A stretch of 64,000 nt of DNA from Escherichia phage vB_EcoM_PTE-Eco09. How positions within the stretch are numbered: position 1 is the first letter of the stretch; every line of letters begins with the position of its first letter. Location: sequence record PQ306574.1; one strand, 5' to 3'. Under the pieces are notes generated by a model. That model worked only from the letters and a program-made list of their open reading frames with translations. It searched no databases and was not told the DNA's origin. The position numbers and the translations under genes were made by a program. Below are positions 1,693 through 60,034 of this stretch, piece after piece.

Positions 1693-4635
1693 TTAATTCT
1701 TTTTAAGTTCCGCTAGTTCAGCTTTAACGGCTTTCAATTCTTCGCTCATTTCCTGAAACGCCTTAATTAAAAGAGCGTTGACAGCGGAGTTAGAAATTGT
1801 TAAGATCTCTTCTGGATTATCTGGATCGCCGATCTTAGAAGTTGTTACGGCTTCCGGCAATTCTTTTTCAAGATCCTGAGCAATAATACCAACTTCATGA
1901 GCAATGACAGTACGGTCGGTTAAAGATTTAACCTTGTCATAGGTGTATACCGTCAAGCGATTAACTTTATCGGTTGCATTCTCTTTATACTCTTCCTTGT
2001 TGATTTTAAGGCGAGCATCAGAACGAATATACACATCGTTAAAGTTACCATTGCGACCAGCTTGGAAATCACCGGAGGCGTTAAAGTCAAAGTTTGTGGT
2101 ATGAATATGAAGACGTGCCATAGCATTAGTAATAACACCACTAGGAACGTGTACACCCATTGCTGCGATGTGGTCGAAACCCCATTTGGTCGCTTTCCAT
2201 ACGTTATATGCGGAAGTTTGAGCATTAGGACAATCAACCAATAAGCCAGCAGCGCGAGTTTTCCATTCTGACCATGCACCACCTTGTACTTCTCCGCGAA
2301 TCAGGCCATTACCATCACCGGATACAGTGCCAGATTCCAACTGGATCATTTTATCCGCAAATTTCCACGCCTGGGCTTGTTTCTGACCACGGAAGCGAAT
2401 AACACCAGCATCATCGCAGTACATCAAGCCTAACTCTAAACCGTTTGGATCTCTAAACCAGATGTGCTTATTGCCAGTGCGTTTAAACTCAATATCAGCA
2501 CCGTTCAGGGTAATATTACCGCCAGTGTGAATTGCTTTAGGCTTAACAGTACCATTAATGCCAAACTCGATTAATTCAGTACCCGGACCACCCGCACGTT
2601 GAGTATACCAATGCCAGCCGCTTTCATCAGCACATTCAAATACTTGTTTACGAGCATCAGCGCCCCATGCACGAATATTGAAACTAGAAGTAGCTGTACC
2701 CTTACCCCAGCGAATCAGACCAGCAGATTCCAAATCACCGAAGAATTTAGTTTTAATCGCACCAGTTGCTAAAGTACGTTCAGTGGTGAAGTGAGCACCT
2801 TTACTATCTTCAAGCTGTATAACGTTATCACGAGCGTTATTGCTATCGCCCCAATGACTCAAACGGAAATAGTCGCGGGATTGTCCAGCACCAGCATCAA
2901 ATGTTAAATATTGGCCTTTAATGTATGTGTTTCCAGCAAAACGAGCAGCACGACTTGCACGTTCTAAGACTAATGCACCTTCTTTACCATCACCACCCAA
3001 AGTAACATTACCGCTACCCAGATTGTAAGTGAATGGACGATAGCCGTTCCAACCACCAAATTTATCATTTTCGGCAGTAGACAGAAGATATACGTTTTGA
3101 CCATCATTACGCCAGAATGCACCATAGTTACCGTAAATCATACGGAATGCATCACTGTTAGCAGCTACATATTGACCATTGGTGTATACAATTTTTGTTT
3201 TTCCTGTAGTCAAATTTACTTGTCCACTACCTTCCAAATCAAATGAGTTAGCACCAACATCATTACGCCACACAAAACCATCACTAGTACCATCCGCATG
3301 ACCGATATAACCACTACGTTGGTTTTTACCATCACGACGATCCCACCACGCCATATATGCAGCTTGACCAGTCTGTCGATGTAAAGTCATCGCATTACCA
3401 CCACCGTGCAATTCCATTTTACCAGTAATTACATATCCTTTATAATTACCCGGTATTGCACTATTAGAATCAATTCTAATAACTTCTGTAGAATCTGTAG
3501 CACCAGTAGCAAGACGATATACAGCACCCTGAACGGTTTCATGCCAGGTCATTTCATTATAGTTACTACGGAATTTACGAATATATTTTCGTCCAGTACC
3601 CCTATCATTACTCAAGTGAACAATATCATAACTGTTTTGTGTGTTATCGTCAAAACTCAACACACCTCGTTTGTTTTCGGTGTTGAAAAGAGTTACAGCA
3701 CGACCGCCAATAACATTATCACCAGCAGGACGTTCAGCAACAAAATCTGGAACGTCATGAACTACCAGATTAACACCAACACTTTTACCAAATTCAACAA
3801 TAACGTTATCAGTGTAACGCTGATATTTCACATAGATATCATAGTTATCACCAGAAGTATTAACAGCCAAAACATCAAATGATTTGTTTGTATTTCGGCG
3901 ATATGCAATAACGTTAACACCTTTAGGGCGACCATTTCCACTGCGAATAACAATTTCTACAATATCAACTTGATCGTATGCAGTAACGTTATATCCGTTA
4001 CCGCCATGAATACGGAAAAATACGCTAAGACCGTTTTGTGGAATCATTGCAGTTGCTAATTTAAAATAGCCTTCAACGATATCACTAGGAGATGTAGCAA
4101 GTTTAACGTTCTTAACAAACATACGGTCAACTTCTTGTTTGCTATAGACGTTCAATTCTCCTGGAGTTGGTTTATCACCTTCGTGATACATTTTATAGCT
4201 AAATGCTTTTTGACCTTCTCTATTATAGCCATAGGTTTCAACACGAGATCCAGCAGACGCATAACGGAAAGTAAATCCGCGACCGTGCGCTTTACCGGCA
4301 GAATGAGGAACGTTAAGAGTTAGATCCCTGAGTCCATCTTGACCATTGGTACGGAAAGCACCAAAGTAGTTAAGATCTCTCGCTGTCTGGTCTTCCAAAT
4401 AGTTAGCTGTTTTACTTAAGATATAATTATTACCTTTAACCTTACCCGCCATTGTAACATCGCGGTCATACACCGGAGGACAACTTAAATTGATAATATC
4501 ACCGGAATCATTTTTAGTAAGAAGATATTGATCCGCAAGGTTGATTGCCAATTCCCCCGGATTCATCGTACTAGCATCCGGTTTACGACCTTTAGTGCTA
4601 GTGCGTTTAAATTGGATTCTGCTTAAATCTGCCAT
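1693..4635 (-). CDS. 37: long tail fibre distal subunit gp37 with C-terminal intramolecular-chaperone (peptidase S74-like) domain
   Basis: 980 aa; N-terminus MADLSRIQFKR…GELAINL matches T4 gp37 N-terminus; C-terminal ~110 aa carry SDARLK…GIIAQDL…coiled-coil typical of self-cleaving chaperone domains of endosialidase/T5 pb1 type. Confidence 0.85.
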   Translation of the reverse strand: MADLSRIQFKRTSTKGRKPDASTMNPGELAINLADQYLLTKNDSGDIINLSCPPVYDRDVTMAGKVKGNNYILSKTANYLEDQTARDLNYFGAFRTNGQDGLRDLTLNVPHSAGKAHGRGFTFRYASAGSRVETYGYNREGQKAFSYKMYHEGDKPTPGELNVYSKQEVDRMFVKNVKLATSPSDIVEGYFKLATAMIPQNGLSVFFRIHGGNGYNVTAYDQVDIVEIVIRSGNGRPKGVNVIAYRRNTNKSFDVLAVNTSGDNYDIYVKYQRYTDNVIVEFGKSVGVNLVVHDVPDFVAERPAGDNVIGGRAVTLFNTENKRGVLSFDDNTQNSYDIVHLSNDRGTGRKYIRKFRSNYNEMTWHETVQGAVYRLATGATDSTEVIRIDSNSAIPGNYKGYVITGKMELHGGGNAMTLHRQTGQAAYMAWWDRRDGKNQRSGYIGHADGTSDGFVWRNDVGANSFDLEGSGQVNLTTGKTKIVYTNGQYVAANSDAFRMIYGNYGAFWRNDGQNVYLLSTAENDKFGGWNGYRPFTYNLGSGNVTLGGDGKEGALVLERASRAARFAGNTYIKGQYLTFDAGAGQSRDYFRLSHWGDSNNARDNVIQLEDSKGAHFTTERTLATGAIKTKFFGDLESAGLIRWGKGTATSSFNIRAWGADARKQVFECADESGWHWYTQRAGGPGTELIEFGINGTVKPKAIHTGGNITLNGADIEFKRTGNKHIWFRDPNGLELGLMYCDDAGVIRFRGQKQAQAWKFADKMIQLESGTVSGDGNGLIRGEVQGGAWSEWKTRAAGLLVDCPNAQTSAYNVWKATKWGFDHIAAMGVHVPSGVITNAMARLHIHTTNFDFNASGDFQAGRNGNFNDVYIRSDARLKINKEEYKENATDKVNRLTVYTYDKVKSLTDRTVIAHEVGIIAQDLEKELPEAVTTSKIGDPDNPEEILTISNSAVNALLIKAFQEMSEELKAVKAELAELKKN

Positions 4636-6229: not shown

Positions 6230-6237
6230 TATTTATA
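6230..6237 (-). promoter_or_regulatory. T4-type late promoter (TATAAATA) for gene 36
   Basis: TATAAATA on minus strand about 34 nt upstream of gene 36 ATG. Confidence 0.5.
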
Positions 6238-6398
6238 GAATGTTAACAAAATATCGCTTCGCGACGTGCCGTAGGCACTGGCTATTTTTTAACCGAAACA
6301 AATTTTCTATTATTCTAAAGATCTTTCTTCGTTTTGGTTACAATTTAACCAACTGTATAAAAATAAAGCCGACCACATGGATCGGCTTGTTAAAAATG

Positions 6399-42622: not shown

Positions 42623-43447
42623 ATGTTCAAGAAATTACAGGATTTTCGTATTTCAGAAGAATCACGCGAATCAATGATGGAACGTATGGATAATTACATC
42701 GAAACATATGACATTGAGGGGATTAATGGTTACATGATCACTGAGATGATCAGTGATCAGATTAACTTTGATGATTATGTGAAGGTTATCCGCTTCCTTG
42801 AGCGCGAGACACAAGATTATGGATTTGTCAAGAAAATCATTAATGTGATGTATGAAGTACACTCCGAAGAATTTGGAGATAATGTATTCAAACATTACAA
42901 ACATAACAACATAACCCCAGCAGAATATAATGCAATCTGTGATTATGTGTCTGAACAATACGAATGGGTAAATGGTGCTCTCTTAGGGGAAGAAGACATG
43001 ACCGATGAGATATCAGAGATTGTCGATTTGATGGATTGCGTCATGGATAAAACCGAAAAGTTAAACGGTACTCTTTATCGAGGTCAACATCTTGACATTC
43101 AGACAATAGAGCGTATCATTGAAGATAAGGAGTTTACCTTTAAAAACTTTGTATCTACCAGCATGACACCGATCATATTTGGAGGATGGCTATCAAACAG
43201 CACTAGCCTTTATTGTGAGAATCGATATGAATCAATGACCGGAAAGATGCAACATTCTTGTAATGTATCATGGGTAATTGACGTAAAAGATCATAAAGGT
43301 TTTGTTGTTGGGTCAATTGCATGGAACCCTTGCGAATGTGAAGTAATTTTACCGCGAGGGACTTGCGTCAAGGTAAACGACGTAGTAGAATCTTTCGGCG
43401 ATGAGAATCGTAGACAATTTACAATTTTCGGTGAGGTGACTAAATGA
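42623..43447 (+). CDS. second ADP-ribosyltransferase (Alt/Mod-like paralog, 274 aa)
   Basis: R-S-E motifs: TLYRGQ, FKNFVSTSMTP (compare Alt FKNYVSTSLAP), ECEVILPRG. Confidence 0.6.
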   Translation: MFKKLQDFRISEESRESMMERMDNYIETYDIEGINGYMITEMISDQINFDDYVKVIRFLERETQDYGFVKKIINVMYEVHSEEFGDNVFKHYKHNNITPAEYNAICDYVSEQYEWVNGALLGEEDMTDEISEIVDLMDCVMDKTEKLNGTLYRGQHLDIQTIERIIEDKEFTFKNFVSTSMTPIIFGGWLSNSTSLYCENRYESMTGKMQHSCNVSWVIDVKDHKGFVVGSIAWNPCECEVILPRGTCVKVNDVVESFGDENRRQFTIFGEVTK

Positions 43448-55416: not shown

Positions 55417-56631
55417 ATGGCTTTCACAGTATCAATTAAATCTGACAAAAGATGTTTTCTTGCTGGAGATGGTTTCACCTTAACGGCGACTGTAGCGGGT
55501 GACGAACCATTACCCAGCAATTTGACATATACATGGACAAAAGACGACCAACCACATGAAAATAGCACAGCTACGCTATCTGTAGTAGGTGCAACAAGTG
55601 AAAATGCGGGTAGCTATAAAGTAACGGTACAGGATACCGATACGATGGAATCAGTAGAATCTGAAGTTTTCCTCATGGAAGAAGCTGAATTAATCGTAAA
55701 TATCACCGAACCGCAGCATTTCTACGTATCATCACAAACAGACGTAGAATTACATGCAACAGTAAAATTTTCTGGTGGGAAGACTCCAGCAGACAACTAT
55801 GAACTACATTATAGTTGGAGTAAGGGCGAAGACGTTATAGACACAACACAGGATATTACGATCCAAAAATTTACAGCAGATAAAAACGGCGTGTATACTG
55901 TAAAAGTGTGGGGTGAGTCGGAAGATTCAGCCGCTAGCGCATCGACTAAAATCATGCTGGCAACAATGAACGTAGATCAGGATGTGGTGGAATCAAAGAC
56001 CGTGGCACTAGGTAAGGAGATCTTACTTAATTATGTTGTGTCAGAGGACATTGTAGGCGATTCTAGCGGTATGCCTAAATTGACGATCAAACATAACTGG
56101 TATTTGCAGCGCGAAGGGCAACCGTCACCGACTCTGATCGGTAGTGAGGACGGCGAAGCACTGGAAGGATTTTCTATCATGCCAGACGGTCATCTGTTCA
56201 AAGAGAGTGCTACTTACGATGACACAGCCAAATTCTGGTGTGTTGCTAAACTATATCAACAGATTGAAGATGAACCAGTAGAAGTTGCAACAAGTACAAG
56301 TAGAAAATGTTCAATGGAAGTTGTTAAAATGTTTCGTTACGTACACCCGATCCCGTGGCGCAAAACTTCATTTATCTACATTGGATGGTGGGTATTTGAC
56401 GAGATTGTTAAATTCAATGAGGCTGGGTTAGAGTGGCGTGACCGAGAAGTTTATTCTACCAGCAAGTACGCCAAAGATCTGGAGACAATCGCGGCAGCGG
56501 AAGAAAAATATAGTGATTGCACTTGCATGGAATCTCGCAATGGTTTCATGTATCATTCCAAAGAGTTACATAAACTGGACCGAGATACGTTAGAGCGAGT
56601 TCTACGCATTCGTGAAACGCATCCTGCTTAA
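55417..56631 (+). CDS. hoc: capsid decoration protein Hoc-like (Ig-like domains)
   Basis: 404 aa; repeated Ig-like segments (TLTATV…YTWTK…AGSYKV; ELHATV…YSWSK…GVYTVKV); position near uvsW as in T4. Confidence 0.6.
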   Translation: MAFTVSIKSDKRCFLAGDGFTLTATVAGDEPLPSNLTYTWTKDDQPHENSTATLSVVGATSENAGSYKVTVQDTDTMESVESEVFLMEEAELIVNITEPQHFYVSSQTDVELHATVKFSGGKTPADNYELHYSWSKGEDVIDTTQDITIQKFTADKNGVYTVKVWGESEDSAASASTKIMLATMNVDQDVVESKTVALGKEILLNYVVSEDIVGDSSGMPKLTIKHNWYLQREGQPSPTLIGSEDGEALEGFSIMPDGHLFKESATYDDTAKFWCVAKLYQQIEDEPVEVATSTSRKCSMEVVKMFRYVHPIPWRKTSFIYIGWWVFDEIVKFNEAGLEWRDREVYSTSKYAKDLETIAAAEEKYSDCTCMESRNGFMYHSKELHKLDRDTLERVLRIRETHPA

Positions 56632-56642
56632 TGAAATCTATC

Positions 56643-56668
56643 AGCCATCCTTCGGGGTGGCTTTTTTG
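56643..56668 (+). terminator. rho-independent terminator with UUCG tetraloop
   Basis: AGCCATCC-TTCG-GGGTGGCT followed by TTTTTTG. Confidence 0.65.
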
Positions 56669-56678
56669 TTTTTAGTGC

Positions 56679-56706: not shown

Positions 56707-56833
56707 GGCACGCATCGACATGCTACTGTCCATAGTGAGGCGAATAAAATATTATGAATATGGGGGTTGAAATGGCGTTGATAACTGTTACTGTATTATT
56801 CGTTGTTGTGTTTATGAATGTATGAGGTGAAGT

Positions 56834-57031
56834 ATGAATGAGATTGTACGATTGATCAAAGAAGCACCAATCGAGATGTATTTTCTGGCTTTGGTTGCAA
56901 CAATGGTCTATCAGCTAGTCGCATGTCATGTGTGGAAGTCGGAAAATGCTTTTATCCGGTTTTTTGGTACTGTCATGATCCAGTTTCCGGTACTGATCAC
57001 TATCCTGTTAATCGTCAATGGGGCGAAGTGA
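56834..57031 (+). CDS. small hydrophobic protein (65 aa)
   Basis: Two predicted TM segments; SD GAGGTGAAG upstream. Confidence 0.35.
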   Translation: MNEIVRLIKEAPIEMYFLALVATMVYQLVACHVWKSENAFIRFFGTVMIQFPVLITILLIVNGAK

Positions 57032-57306
57032 TGGACAAGAAAACAGCGTTAATGGTTTACATGCTACGAGAAGACCACGGTCTTAATTTTGTTGATATTG
57101 CTAAAAAGATTGGCGGGATCAGCGGACAAGATGCGGCTAAGGCATGGTTGATGGTAAAAGATGCACGCGAGGCTTACGCCAGCCGCGAAAAGGTTGTTTA
57201 TCGTAAACACCATATCAACAAAAAATTTAAAAATAAAGTTCAAAAACGTGTTGACAAGCCAAATAACACTGTTATAATGGACGCATTCAAACGGGCAATG
57301 TCCTGA
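57031..57306 (+). CDS. hypothetical basic protein (91 aa), possibly DNA-binding
   Basis: Internal ATG of track ORF 56923-57306; start overlaps previous stop; Lys/Arg-rich C-terminus. Confidence 0.4.
   Translation: MDKKTALMVYMLREDHGLNFVDIAKKIGGISGQDAAKAWLMVKDAREAYASREKVVYRKHHINKKFKNKVQKRVDKPNNTVIMDAFKRAMS
57251..57278 (+). promoter_or_regulatory. sigma70-like promoter inside 3' end of upstream ORF
   Basis: TTGACA-N16-TATAAT. Confidence 0.5.
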
Positions 57307-57352
57307 TTTGTAATTAATATTCTGAATAACTAATCAATAGAGGTGACTAATT

Positions 57353-57790
57353 ATGAAATTCCGTAAAAACCACGTAGCAATGAAAAAGGCAATGTTCGAA
57401 GCATTCAAAGCAGTTGATCAGGGCGGTGTTACTCTGATTGAGCAAATTAATGTTGATGTTTGGCAATCTCCGGCGATCACCTGCTCCCGTCTTGCTACGG
57501 CTGGCCTTCTGAAAGTTCACAGCTCTACCGCATACGACGAAGCATTGCAAGTCATTAAGGCTTTTGCGGGAGACGTTACCAGCAAGTGGGTCTATGTGAA
57601 TAAAGGTGAAATTGCGGTTGCTCACGTAGGCAACAATATTCAGATGGAAATCAAGATTAAGGAAGGGTCTAAACGCAATCAGATGCTTGTTCGATTCCAA
57701 CCATACAAAACTAACGTAGTGCCGGATGATCTGATCATCTCTAAGAGTAATGTTACCATTCGCCGAAATCAGATCGTTATCAACAAATAA
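57353..57790 (+). CDS. hypothetical protein (145 aa)
   Basis: ATG ORF with SD GAGGTGA. Confidence 0.5.
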   Translation: MKFRKNHVAMKKAMFEAFKAVDQGGVTLIEQINVDVWQSPAITCSRLATAGLLKVHSSTAYDEALQVIKAFAGDVTSKWVYVNKGEIAVAHVGNNIQMEIKIKEGSKRNQMLVRFQPYKTNVVPDDLIISKSNVTIRRNQIVINK

Positions 57791-57798
57791 TTAACATT

Positions 57799-57824
57799 AG
57801 CCGTCCTTCGGGGCGGCTTTTTTG
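57799..57824 (+). terminator. rho-independent terminator with UUCG tetraloop
   Basis: AGCCGTCC-TTCG-GGGCGGCT followed by TTTTTT; covaries with the 56643 terminator. Confidence 0.65.
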
Positions 57825-57825
57825 T

Positions 57826-58200
57826 ATATGTTATTAACATAATTTTAGTTTACATGTGCACAATATTAATACTGTTTGATTAAATTATGATCAAAACGAA
57901 GAAAGATCTTTAGAACATAGAAAATGTATCTTTGGTTAATTATTAATCACTACATATTGTAACACAAATGTTATACTCCGTAGGAGTTCGCGAAGCGATA
58001 TCCTTTTGTGTAGTTTTTACATGTATGATTAAATTATGATCAAAACGAAGACTTATCTTATAGAATAATAAAAATTTGTTTCGAACATTTATTAATCAAT
58101 TACTGGAAGTGTTTTTAATGCTCGCTGTGCTCGCTTCCGCTACGCGGATACTTGTATTTGTTATTAACTTGTAGTATGATATTGCTTTCTATGGAGGAAA
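57826..58200. repeat. AT-rich intergenic region with two ~45-nt direct repeats
   Basis: TACATGT-GATTAAATTATGATCAAAACGAAGA at about 57850-57905 and 58017-58052; GTTATTAAC at 57828 and 58160; TTCGCGAA palindrome. Confidence 0.5.
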
Positions 58201-58204
58201 TATT

Positions 58205-58792
58205 ATGTTTGACCAGTTACAAGATCTATTTGGAGTAAAACCACTTCGTAGATGTGCTTTAATCGGCTCTAGAAAAGCGCCTAGCGACATTTTGATAATG
58301 GCTAGTACCATTGGGAGGGTATTGTCAGAAAATCGCGTTGTAGCGCATTCTGGAGGGGCTTACGGTATGGACAATGCTTTCATGAAGTATTACGATCCAG
58401 AGTATAGAAAAATTTTCATTCCAAATTGGAAGTTTTATGACCACAAGCATAACGGTCATGATGTGATTGCATGGCAAACCTTAGAACAAAAAAATCTGGC
58501 GATGGATGAATTAGAACACGTTTATGATAATCCTCGTTCTATACCGTTATACATGCAAAATCTGTTTTCTAGAAATGTTGCTCAAGTCTTAGGTGAGACA
58601 CTTGATGATCCTGTAGATTGTGTGATATTCTGGGCGAAAGAAGTTAATGGAATCGTTTCTGGAGGAACTAGAATTGCTGTTTATGTTGCCCGTAGACATG
58701 GGATACCATGTTTTAACTTATATCATCAAGAAAATAGATCCGCCGTCGAAAAAATCTTGGGCGGATCTGACTTGTCTTGGTTAGATATTTAG
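58205..58792 (+). CDS. DprA/Smf-like (SLOG-superfamily Rossmann) protein
   Basis: 195 aa; IGSRKAPSD…VVAHSGGAYGMD and C-terminal IVSGGTRIAVYVARRHGIPCFNL match the DprA-type Rossmann core pattern. Confidence 0.45.
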   Translation: MFDQLQDLFGVKPLRRCALIGSRKAPSDILIMASTIGRVLSENRVVAHSGGAYGMDNAFMKYYDPEYRKIFIPNWKFYDHKHNGHDVIAWQTLEQKNLAMDELEHVYDNPRSIPLYMQNLFSRNVAQVLGETLDDPVDCVIFWAKEVNGIVSGGTRIAVYVARRHGIPCFNLYHQENRSAVEKILGGSDLSWLDI

Positions 58793-60034
58793 TTAAGCGT
58801 TGTCAATCTCAAGCGGTGGCAGTTCGATTCCTAAAATGTAGGACATTTCTGAACGTCCAGCCATTTTACCCCAATCGTCACCCTTGATGACCTGGTGTTC
58901 TTCCTGATCAACTTTTGATGTATATGGGTTGACAGAGAGTGAATAACGATTCATAATAGCTACATGATGCTGGAAGCTATTAGGGTCAATTACACTCTTA
59001 TACGCGCCAGCGCCGTCGGCTTCTGTATATGGGGAGTAGAACAGAGAACCTACACTCTCCATATCACCGATCATGTGCTTACAACCAACGAGCATATAAT
59101 CGAAAGGTGTTGTCGTGTCTGCGTACACTTCCAGACCGCAACGTAGACGACCTTCGCTTAGAGCATTGTCGGTTTCTTCCATCCAACCGGAAGATTGCAG
59201 GAGGCCAACCACGCGAGAAGACGCCAAAACGTATGTACCAGCAAAGGAGGAAGTCCGCAACATTTGATTGCTCATTTCGCAAGCATAGCGGTAAAGTTCA
59301 CGCGCTTGTGTTGGTGCATCCTGAACGCTAACGAGAGAAAGTACGCCATCAGGGGTGATCCCTTTAATTTTATAGCGAGATGATACAGTGATCAACTTCT
59401 GAATAATATCTTTGTTGATCTCTTCGGAAGCAACAGTAGCCAGAAGATCAATTACAGAGTTTTCAGAGTTGATTTGGCTTGCCTCAAGATCCTGCATCAA
59501 TTCGGTCGTGAATGAGGTTTTCAGTTTACGAGAACCTACATTAACTTGCCACTTGTCAAACTGCATAGAGGTAGACGCAATTTCGGTGTTTTTATCTTCA
59601 AAGTATTCTACCGATGCACAATCGCTATAGAAACGAATTTTGTTTGTCATTACGCCTTTAAAGATCGCAGCTTCTGGAGTTGCGGCATCTTCACCGACTG
59701 TACCAGCGGTCACAACTTCGTATACAACATCGCCTGATTTGAATAGTGCGCCTTCGTCATAAGATTTTTCTTTTGAAAACTCTTCAATCTCTGTGCGATC
59801 ACCAACCGCGCCACCGTAGGTTGCAGCAGTTCGGAAAGTCATCTGACCATCATGATTAAGATAACGTAGGCCGTACAATGCAGATACTGGTTGATCCGTT
59901 GGCTGGATTGCTACCAGATCAGAGAAAATCAGGTTGTTTACCGCGCGAGTTAATGATAATAGTTGCGGTCGCGCTGTCTGGTTAGCTACTGAGGAAGTAG
60001 ATTCCCGCAACAGTTCAGTAAAAATATGAGTCAT
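58793..60034 (-). CDS. 24: head vertex protein gp24
   Basis: About 413 aa; adjacent to gene 23 and similar to it in places (paralog relation as in T4); start at Met 38-45 nt downstream of a TATAAATA late promoter. Confidence 0.75.
   Translation of the reverse strand: MTHIFTELLRESTSSVANQTARPQLLSLTRAVNNLIFSDLVAIQPTDQPVSALYGLRYLNHDGQMTFRTAATYGGAVGDRTEIEEFSKEKSYDEGALFKSGDVVYEVVTAGTVGEDAATPEAAIFKGVMTNKIRFYSDCASVEYFEDKNTEIASTSMQFDKWQVNVGSRKLKTSFTTELMQDLEASQINSENSVIDLLATVASEEINKDIIQKLITVSSRYKIKGITPDGVLSLVSVQDAPTQARELYRYACEMSNQMLRTSSFAGTYVLASSRVVGLLQSSGWMEETDNALSEGRLRCGLEVYADTTTPFDYMLVGCKHMIGDMESVGSLFYSPYTEADGAGAYKSVIDPNSFQHHVAIMNRYSLSVNPYTSKVDQEEHQVIKGDDWGKMAGRSEMSYILGIELPPLEIDNA

Follow-up and report, generated by a model that had tools for sequence, protein, structure and literature searches.

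We found that the 414-bp non-coding gap at positions 57791-58204 of the window (the whole 64,000-nt stretch of Escherichia phage vB_EcoM_PTE-Eco09, record PQ306574.1, that was analysed; coordinates are on its plus strand unless stated otherwise) contains two tandem units of ~150 nt, A and B. They are members of a dispersed family that every Krischvirus genome examined carries in four copies, spread over three intergenic sites. Each unit was shown to be a structured non-coding element of ~100-150 nt with two modules, an AT-rich imperfect hairpin followed by GC-rich mini-hairpins, and compensatory changes preserve the hairpins. The dispersed hairpin element is undescribed in the literature examined, namely the main text of the two papers on the PeSLs of RB49 and phi1 (PMC2839356, PMC4122927), Nolan et al. 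2006 and a review of T4 replication (PMC3016281). On the basis of our analysis, we tentatively propose that the units may be DNA-level hairpin signals, ssi-like and origin-associated, and that the three loci would then be candidate origin or origin-accessory sites, a reading to which we give less than even confidence.

The window phage is a T4-type coliphage of the RB49-like genus Krischvirus. A search with 601 nt around the locus matched 58 phage records at 95-100% identity, all of them Krischvirus, and the A-B locus was kept in all 58 genomes. The gap separates the stop of a 145-aa ORF (57790) from the ATG of a DprA-like gene (58205), and its equivalent in RB49, whose minus strand corresponds to the plus strand of the window, is a 413-bp gap from ORF165 to ORF164 (the DprA-like protein); the RB49 cluster around it reads inh-hoc-167-24.3-165-164, with ORF164 convergent with the capsid vertex gene 24. 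The original prediction of an AT-rich region without a credible ORF was borne out in both parts. With a GC content of 28.3% versus 40.4% for the whole window, the predicted 375-nt region falls in the lowest 0.08% of 375-nt windows, and no other stretch of that length in the window is richer in AT. The sole reading frame of at least 30 aa encodes 32 aa from a TTG start (58076-58174) and is not conserved: it is disrupted in 9 of 9 other aligned Krischvirus genomes, the window having an extra T at 58112. An 8-codon mini-ORF at 57886-57912 was considered as a gene and rejected, as it has no Shine-Dalgarno sequence and is missing from copies C and D. An Rfam 15 scan of window positions 57000-59000 gave no match inside the units; its best hits were to the terminator, which resembles the 3' ends of sRNAs (23.9 bits, the gathering score being 95). 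A tRNA/tmRNA scan found none. The comparison with related phages that had been proposed earlier showed the locus to be conserved not only in the 58 genomes but also in a more distant viral contig (L011), with homologues in prophages.

Unit A (57849-57998; nhmmer E = 8e-29 for the RB49 copy) comprises a leader TTTACATGT, a long AT-rich imperfect hairpin at 57877-57949 whose outer stem pairs TGATTAA (57877-57883) with TTAATCA (57943-57949), a spacer, and two adjacent GC mini-hairpins at 57975-57998, namely ACTCC-GTA-GGAGT (57975-57987) and TCGC-GAA-GCGA (57988-57998). Unit B (58016-58148), a member of the same repeat family, has its long AT-rich imperfect hairpin at 58026-58098 (TGATTAA at 58026-58032, TTAATCA at 58092-58098, inner stem TCAAAACGAA/TTTGTTTCGA), followed by a GC-rich direct repeat, GCTCGCT-GT-GCTCGCT (58120-58135), and a mini-hairpin, TCCGC-TAC-GCGGA (58136-58148), the loop of which reads GTA on the minus strand. 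The long hairpin thus spans ~75 nt with closing pairs TG(A/G)TTA...TA(A/G)(T/C)CA, and each unit carries one or two mini-hairpins with three-base loops reading GNA on either strand. The GC-rich direct repeat of unit B is a conserved block in L011 and possibly represents a candidate protein-binding site upstream of the promoter. The two direct repeats first noticed in this region turned out to be the best-conserved part of the units; they are indeed present (57873-57910 and 58022-58059, exact 26-nt core, spacing 149 nt), but they measure 38 nt at 89% identity and not ~45 nt. A 25-nt core of the repeat occurs twice in the window against an expectation of 0.00. The predicted palindrome, TTCGCGAA, lies at 57987-57994 as part of the unit A mini-hairpin TCGC-GAA-GCGA, which includes GCGAAGC as well; GCGAAGC alone is not specific, with 11 occurrences in the window versus 5.2 expected.

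The units are framed by signals of the neighbouring genes. The strong terminator placed upstream by the original prediction is the intrinsic terminator of the 145-aa ORF (57799-57824), in which a hairpin at 57799-57818 with an 8-bp stem (AGCCGTCC/GGGCGGCT) and a UUCG loop is followed by a T-run. The same terminator was predicted in RB49 by TransTerm (supplement, PMC1524935), and L011 retains it, one G-C pair having been replaced by A-T in a compensatory manner. On the other side, the 3' edge of unit B overlaps a conserved sigma-70-type promoter of the DprA-like gene (58152-58180; TTGTAT at 58152-58157, 17-nt spacer, TATGAT at 58175-58180), which in scans with a promoter tool and our own weight matrix is the top-scoring and only good sigma-70 site of the region, of moderate strength (score 6.9), and has the counterpart TTGTTT-17-TATGAT in L011; published early-promoter predictions for RB49 include none at 974xx-978xx (supplement, PMC1524935). 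A Shine-Dalgarno sequence, GGAGG (58193-58197), and the start codon (58205-58207) follow at 58193-58207. The downstream gene is present as claimed, and its product is annotated as DprA-like in RefSeq; against Pfam DNA_processg_A, it scored E = 8e-5, below the curated cut-off. A search with the DprA-like protein identified L011 as the only intermediate relative among viral and metagenome contigs, and phage records with 60-95% identity were absent. The DprA-like gene of Slopekvirus and Karamvirus comes after rnlB or an HNH gene, and a spacer is lacking there.

A 17-nt repeat flanks the array. Its left copy, TTGTATATGTTATTAAC (57822-57838), is 94% identical to the right one and duplicates two parts of the promoter at 58152, namely its -35 box and the initial 11 nt of its spacer. 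L011 shows an equal relation between left and right copies. Since the -35 box and the start of the spacer are duplicated at its left edge, the array looks like an insertion or duplication inside the promoter. This repeat, TTGTAT(A/T)TGTTATTAAC, also accounts for the repeated motifs noted earlier: GTTATTAAC is found at 57830-57838 and 58160-58168, each time within it, and 3 times in the window versus 0.92 expected.

The suggestion that the region is a cluster of middle promoters did not survive. RB49 has neither a MotA orthologue nor a middle-promoter consensus (PMC1524935), which excludes such a cluster, and the gap holds a single good sigma-70 promoter, that upstream of the DprA-like gene. 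A MotA-type cluster, or a chance feature of an AT-rich spacer, is exceedingly improbable as an explanation: the DNA is AT-rich and has several weak promoter-like hexamer pairs, but the promoter-like count is 3 as against 5.6 expected in shuffles, the chance expectation of the repeats is zero, and the region is conserved in the 58 genomes, in L011 and in prophages.

That the repeats belong to a dispersed four-copy family goes beyond the original prediction. A profile search with nhmmer returned exactly four copies in RB49 and four in phage LF73P4, and nhmmer with --max revealed no further diverged copies in RB49, LF73P4 or L011. The third copy in the window, unit C (6351-6254, minus strand), lies between gene 35 and the tail-fibre gene 36, upstream of the latter, and consists of a long hairpin (6351-6279) and the mini-hairpins GTGCC-TAC-GGCAC (6278-6266) and TCGC-GAA-GCGA (6264-6254). 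On the same strand, the intrinsic terminator of gene 35 (6361-6387), also annotated in several phage records, lies immediately upstream of unit C, and the late promoter of gene 36, TATAAATA (6230-6237), immediately downstream. This promoter was predicted in RB49 as Pl:150089 (supplement, PMC1524935), and our late-promoter search found TATAAATA only downstream of unit C. The fourth copy, unit D, is situated upstream of gene 3 (between genes 2 and 3), outside the window, and was seen in the complete RB49 genome. All copies are intergenic and oriented like the flanking genes, and the three loci (ORF165/ORF164 beside gene 24, genes 35/36 and genes 2/3) all belong to late/virion modules. The gene 35-C-gene 36 arrangement is kept in 57 of the 58 Krischvirus genomes, with no empty sites. 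Units C and D are 90-95% identical; A shares 70% with B and 66% with C. Variable sites make up ~6% of the unit cores versus 16-21% of third codon positions in the flanking genes, and this deficit suggests a moderate constraint on the units.

L011 is a 10.7-kb viral contig with a DprA-like protein of 86% identity, and its layout is the same: terminator, two tandem units and promoter. The unit A stem ACTCC/GGAGT has become AATCC/GGATT (AATCC-GAA-GGATT) there, and the unit B stem TCCGC/GCGGA has become TCGGC/GCCGA (TCGGC-GTA-GCCGA), the latter through a compensatory C-G to G-C change. Among the copies, the mini-hairpin stems are wholly different (ACTCC/GGAGT, AATCC/GGATT, GTGCC/GGCAC, TCCGC/GCGGA, TCGGC/GCCGA) with the architecture retained. 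The long hairpin was the minimum-free-energy fold in 8 of 8 divergent copies tested, and in an alignment of these eight copies, 89% of cells were paired versus 24-45% with the partners slid, and seven hairpin pairs had changed on both sides. The covariation score, tested on the structure predicted from the same alignment, was 0.306 versus 0.151 +/- 0.036 for shuffled alignments and was reached by 0 of 500 shuffles; the RNAalifold consensus energy was weak (-0.5 kcal/mol). In one Krischvirus genome (L017), a pair of the small 5' hairpin is broken by changes on one side only, and in A and B alike it is the same pair. The tandem copies of L011 have evolved in concert in their 5' halves, the two copies being 86% identical to each other and 56% identical to unit A; the tandem pair with its distinct A-type and B-type 3' ends is older than the split from L011.

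Concerted change of this kind would also be expected if the units were an expanded PeSL-type cassette that merely insulates transcription units and provides short homologies for recombination and gene shuffling, a reading that we consider unlikely. PeSLs come from the same phage group and are composites of an intergenic stem-loop, AT-rich DNA and a promoter (PMC2839356, PMC4122927). Their layout recurs at the junction of unit B with the DprA-like gene (58136-58207), in the order stem-loop, T-run/TTGT(A/T)T box, promoter, Shine-Dalgarno sequence and ATG, and the 17-nt flanking repeat fits an origin of the array through duplication within a promoter. The similarity stops at that junction, however, and does not extend to the unit bodies, which are longer and have a conserved long hairpin and GNA mini-hairpins. 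What defines PeSLs is a strong sigma-70 promoter of the consensus type immediately preceding an ORFan in a hyperplastic region (PMC2839356); no promoter of that strength was found here, units A, C and D having none of the kind, and the loci lie in late/virion modules rather than in hyperplastic regions upstream of early ORFans, with C and D preceding late genes. The cassette reading also leaves unexplained the conserved ~75-nt hairpin, the strict GNA loops and the homology to an origin-like prophage region described below.

Recombination between copies is nevertheless suggested by one genome, and both PeSLs and the units are possible recombination substrates. Phage LF73P4 (OZ035795.1) carries both reciprocal D/C hybrid junctions of a large inversion, with second breakpoints at the ~90-nt PeSL211/210 repeat, which amounts to two nested inversions relative to RB49. 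Such exchange at units of 90-95% identity would agree with the cassette reading, but the arrangement may be a misassembly, because it equals an alternative path of the assembly graph through two ~90-nt repeat pairs.

The feature that points most directly to our preferred reading, that of DNA-level hairpin signals, is the type of mini-hairpin. The 414-nt region contains 3 mini-hairpins versus 0.07 in shuffles. The 164 kb of RB49 hold 92 GC-rich triloop mini-hairpins, only 11 of which are of the C(GNA)G type; 6 of these 11 lie within the four units, and directly adjacent pairs of mini-hairpins occur just three times in RB49, in units A, C and D. According to the review by Hirao, GNA alone among 64 loops yields an extraordinarily stable DNA mini-hairpin; the same review names the priming site of G4, ssiA of RSF1010 (CCGAAGG) and the promoters of N4 as places where such sequences occur, and it states that single-strand-binding protein binds them poorly (PMC13037366). 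The terminator at 57799-57818, in contrast, has the RNA-stable loop UUCG. Mainly from this difference in loops, GNA being DNA-stabilising, we infer that the mini-hairpins act in DNA.

The alternative that the units are structured RNAs, either genes for small RNAs, as also suggested earlier, or read-through 3' or 5' UTR elements affecting termination, stability or translation of neighbouring late and early messages, is one that we regard as rather improbable, even though several observations agree with it. All copies are oriented with the flanking genes, and several stems include gene-sense G-T pairs, which are A-C mismatches on the other strand; these pairs speak against a purely DNA-level reading insofar as they are equally compatible with RNA. 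Copies C and D fold with z-scores of -3.3 and -3.5, but the antisense strands of the units fold about equally well, and Rfam provided no match. The mini-hairpins of B and C with their T-rich runs were flagged as terminator-like; a GC hairpin with a T-run is clearly present at 57799-57824 and at gene 35 and weak in these mini-hairpins, and T-tracts are absent after the mini-hairpins of D, of L011 unit A and of the prophage. Each L011 unit has a near-consensus TTGACA-17-TGTAAT, from which a transcript of ~50-65 nt extending to the mini-hairpins is predicted, yet no promoter before or inside the units is conserved between the window and L011, the strong divergent promoters within the L011 units having no equivalent in the window, and the only good sigma-70 site in the window region is the gene promoter. 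Copy C, moreover, follows a strong terminator and has the late promoter downstream of it, extended complementarity to genes of the phage or of E. coli was looked for without success, and the GNA triloops are of the DNA-stabilising type.

The DNA-level reading gained a context from prophages, in which both modules have homologues beside iteron clusters, and this lends indirect support to the earlier suggestion that the region may be a replication origin. Among 5426 E. coli genomes, 53 contain a match to the long hairpin of A and B (77-78% identity across 75-76 nt, E = 6e-15). The match was traced to a 35-kb prophage in hicB, where it lies in a gene-free region of ~1.3 kb between divergent genes. 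This region contains, in order, the long hairpin, adjacent GAA mini-hairpins, GTA/GCA hairpins, an inverted TTC/TAC group and 7-9 iterons. Its pair ACGGC-GTA-GCCGT / GCGC-GAA-GCGC is homologous to the GTA and GAA pair of unit A, with compensatory stem changes. In 24 related viral or prophage contigs, the layout is constant and the stems and iteron types vary; 114 of 119 mini-hairpins beside the homologous module in these contigs have GNA loops or the complement. Co-variation links the type of iteron (TGTAGG or AGGGGCAA) to an adjacent 313-333-aa protein and not to a 60-aa protein, as would be expected of an origin and its initiator, and on this ground the region is origin-like and we infer that it is an origin. 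Beyond this, no replication genes could be recognised in the prophage; PHROGs and Pfam recognised no replication protein among its neighbours. Rfam found nothing in the region, a comparison with plasmids gave no match, the comparison with phages returned Krischvirus only, and a pattern scan of genome contigs gave no match.

The homology between phage and prophage starts and stops exactly at the hairpin boundaries, and the prophage copy (75%) resembles unit A more closely than do units B (70%), C (66%) and D. Both observations could be taken to mean that the units are a selfish or mobile palindromic repeat, similar to MITE, REP or ERIC sequences, which is in essence neutral and has spread both inside the phage genome and from one coliphage to another, unrelated one. 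REP/BIME, ERIC and Correia-type MITEs are likewise short imperfect palindromes, dispersed, intergenic and often located just downstream of genes. Unlike those repeats, the element is present in a lytic phage in just four copies, at fixed positions in 58 genomes, with neither a transposase nor a target-site duplication (none at the C and D boundaries). Empty sites are lacking at the A-B and gene 35-C-gene 36 loci, the deficit of variable core sites indicates constraint, and the A-type/B-type tandem pair predates the L011 split. We therefore consider a neutral mobile repeat distinctly unlikely.

The hairpins can be compared with ssi signals, and the likeness concerns the hairpin type and the prophage context. 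Strand-specific hairpins including C(GNA)G characterise RSF1010 ssiA/ssiB and the G4 complementary-strand origin, and strand-specific DNA hairpins with a GNA-loop mini-hairpin (motif as defined in PMC13037366) were found in the units as well. RSF1010 ssiA has CCGAAGG, the phage copies have TCCGTAGGA and CGCGAAGCG, and the homologues have ACCGAAGGT, CCCGAAGGG and TCCGAAGGA. The prophage hairpins adjoin iterons, with groups on opposite strands, like ssiA and ssiB in oriV, and would thus lie beside an origin of vegetative replication if the iteron region is one. The phage loci differ in that they lack iterons and belong to a T4-type phage with its own primosome, and no counterpart of the ~75-nt AT-rich hairpin is known from ssi or G4 signals. 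T4-type phages encode their own primase and helicase loader, which are not known to need hairpin signals, and this counts against the ssi reading. We know of no N4-type RNA polymerase in T4-type phages. The promoters of the phage N4 virion RNA polymerase also have GC stems of 5-7 bp with three-base, purine-rich loops in DNA (PMC13037366).

If the units do act as ssi-like signals, the following steps can be envisaged. The AT-rich stretch would be opened by transcription, an R-loop, a D-loop or supercoiling, upon which each strand could fold. On the opened strand, the long hairpin and the extraordinarily stable mini-hairpins, poorly bound by single-strand-binding protein, might then mark a loading site for helicase-primase or a primer start, and the three loci might thereby serve as origin or origin-accessory sites in a T4-type phage that has no MotA-dependent origins. 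Being repeats of ~100 nt, the copies may also be substrates for homologous recombination. In a bolder version of this proposal, the MotA-less RB49 group would initiate replication at the four units. These would constitute a new T4-like origin type, composed of an AT-rich hairpin and of GNA mini-hairpins that resist SSB and serve as strand-specific signals for priming or helicase loading, and horizontal transfer would have made the type common to this group and to the iteron origins in a family of temperate E. coli phages; we regard this as possible but doubtful.

The T4 origins offer support and objections alike. In T4, late-gene regions close to switches of the transcribed strand harbour the more active origins (PMC3016281), and the three loci resemble oriE, oriF and oriG in being multiple, in lying in late-gene regions near such switches, and in consisting of AT-rich, easily unwound DNA. 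Their distance from extremes of strand switching and cumulative skew is 1.6-5 kb, although nearness to skew extremes is not significant, as there are 8 extremes in 164 kb. T4 oriF and oriG need a MotA-dependent promoter, and RB49 has no MotA; the gap is AT-rich like these R-loop origins but has no Mot-box promoter. T4 oriE has 12-nt iterons and the phage loci have none; an iteron-type origin calls for at least three evenly spaced direct repeats of 11-22 nt that bind an initiator, the gap containing only its two large repeats and the doublet GCTCGCT-GT-GCTCGCT, and iterons being present only in the prophage homologue. This lack of iterons and of a strong promoter of the T4-origin kind counts against an origin reading, as does the absence of GNA mini-hairpin clusters from T4 positions 70-93 kb, which include oriE and the gene 2/3 spacer. 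Finally, T4 origins share no common motif (PMC3016281), whereas the loci of the RB49 group share one.

These findings may bear on how T4-type phages start replication and on the stability and assembly of their genomes. Two of the copies form inverted repeats of ~100 nt that lie 87 kb apart, which is relevant to genome stability and assembly; the rearrangement in one public Krischvirus genome falls precisely on family copies, which are long and similar enough for effects on recombination or assembly. T4 is the only detailed case of T4-type origins, and its origins share no motif and are mostly MotA-dependent, while RB49-type phages, which lack MotA, are widely used therapeutic coliphages. For these phages, a four-copy element whose homologue lies beside prophage iterons pinpoints three candidate initiation loci, and it suggests that ssi-type hairpin signals are perhaps used by large lytic phages.

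In the Krischvirus LF73P4 (OZ035795.1), we found that units C and D, two copies of the intergenic hairpin repeat, occur as hybrids of each other, with both reciprocal forms present, at 56,743-56,851 and 141,390-141,499 (locus L021, 1447-1656); the counterpart of these hybrids in the window is unit C at 6254-6351. One junction reads gene 2-ORF130-[D/C]-gene 36, and the other reads gene 35-[C/D]-gene 3. A second pair of breakpoints falls in the ~90-nt repeat PeSL211/210 (RB49 42,955-43,049 and 123,217-123,304), and, compared with RB49, the two breakpoint pairs combined amount to two inversions, one nested in the other. The LF73P4 order could also be a misassembly, because an assembly graph containing two pairs of repeats can be traversed in two ways and this order is the alternative one. 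A late promoter, Pl:150021 (window 6352-6375, minus strand; RB49 149,979-150,021), was predicted with a score of 15.4 on the strand opposite gene 36 and overlaps unit C at its 5' edge (Nolan et al., 2006). A similar TATAAAAATA was observed immediately upstream of unit D.

Around the tandem units A and B, a 27-nt terminator repeat was present in two copies with 93% identity, one after the hoc-like gene (56643-56669) and the other upstream of unit A (57799-57825); these terminators are another short dispersed repeat. The hoc-like and inh genes (55417-56631, plus strand) lie on the early-gene strand, opposite genes 23 and 24, and TATAAATA was not found upstream of them on their strand. The T-run at 58107-58112 of the window contains one T more (58112) than in all nine of the other aligned Krischvirus genomes, and the spurious 32-aa ORF at 58076-58174 owes its existence to this single extra T. 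In two other T4-type genera, Slopekvirus and Karamvirus (L015 and L016), the DprA-like gene, which in the window lies downstream of unit B, occupies the same hoc-to-gene 24 locus as in Krischvirus, without the spacer and directly 3' of either the RNA ligase 2 gene (rnlB) or an HNH gene; at this locus in Krischvirus, rnlB is missing and the repeat array is in its place.

Every unit of L011, the 10.7-kb viral contig that is the sole intermediate relative found, carries near-consensus divergent sigma-70 promoters within both arms of the long hairpin: rightward at 1976-2004 and 2146-2174 (plus strand, TTGACA-17-TGTAAT) and leftward at 1961-1934 and 2131-2104 (minus strand, TTGCTT or TTGATT-16-TATAAT). 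The Krischvirus unit copies lack these divergent promoters. L011 also has an extra leader of ~170 nt (2270-2440) separating the conserved promoter from the DprA-like start codon, with a possible hairpin, ACCCTAAAA...TTTTAGAGGGT, and the motif TTTACTAGAAT, which is shared with the prophage region.

That region, in a 35-kb E. coli prophage inserted in hicB, is gene-free, spans 1.3-1.45 kb and contains 7-9 iterons (L026 3885-5151, corresponding to 2,553,383-2,554,649 of E. coli H2, NZ_CP028733.1; also in L028, L029 and L030). At least three iteron types were found, namely TAGTGTAGG, TTCAGGGGC and TTGTACATC, and a downstream protein of 313-333 aa, of unknown family, co-varies with iteron type. The prophage iterons and this protein look like an uncharacterised origin-initiator module.
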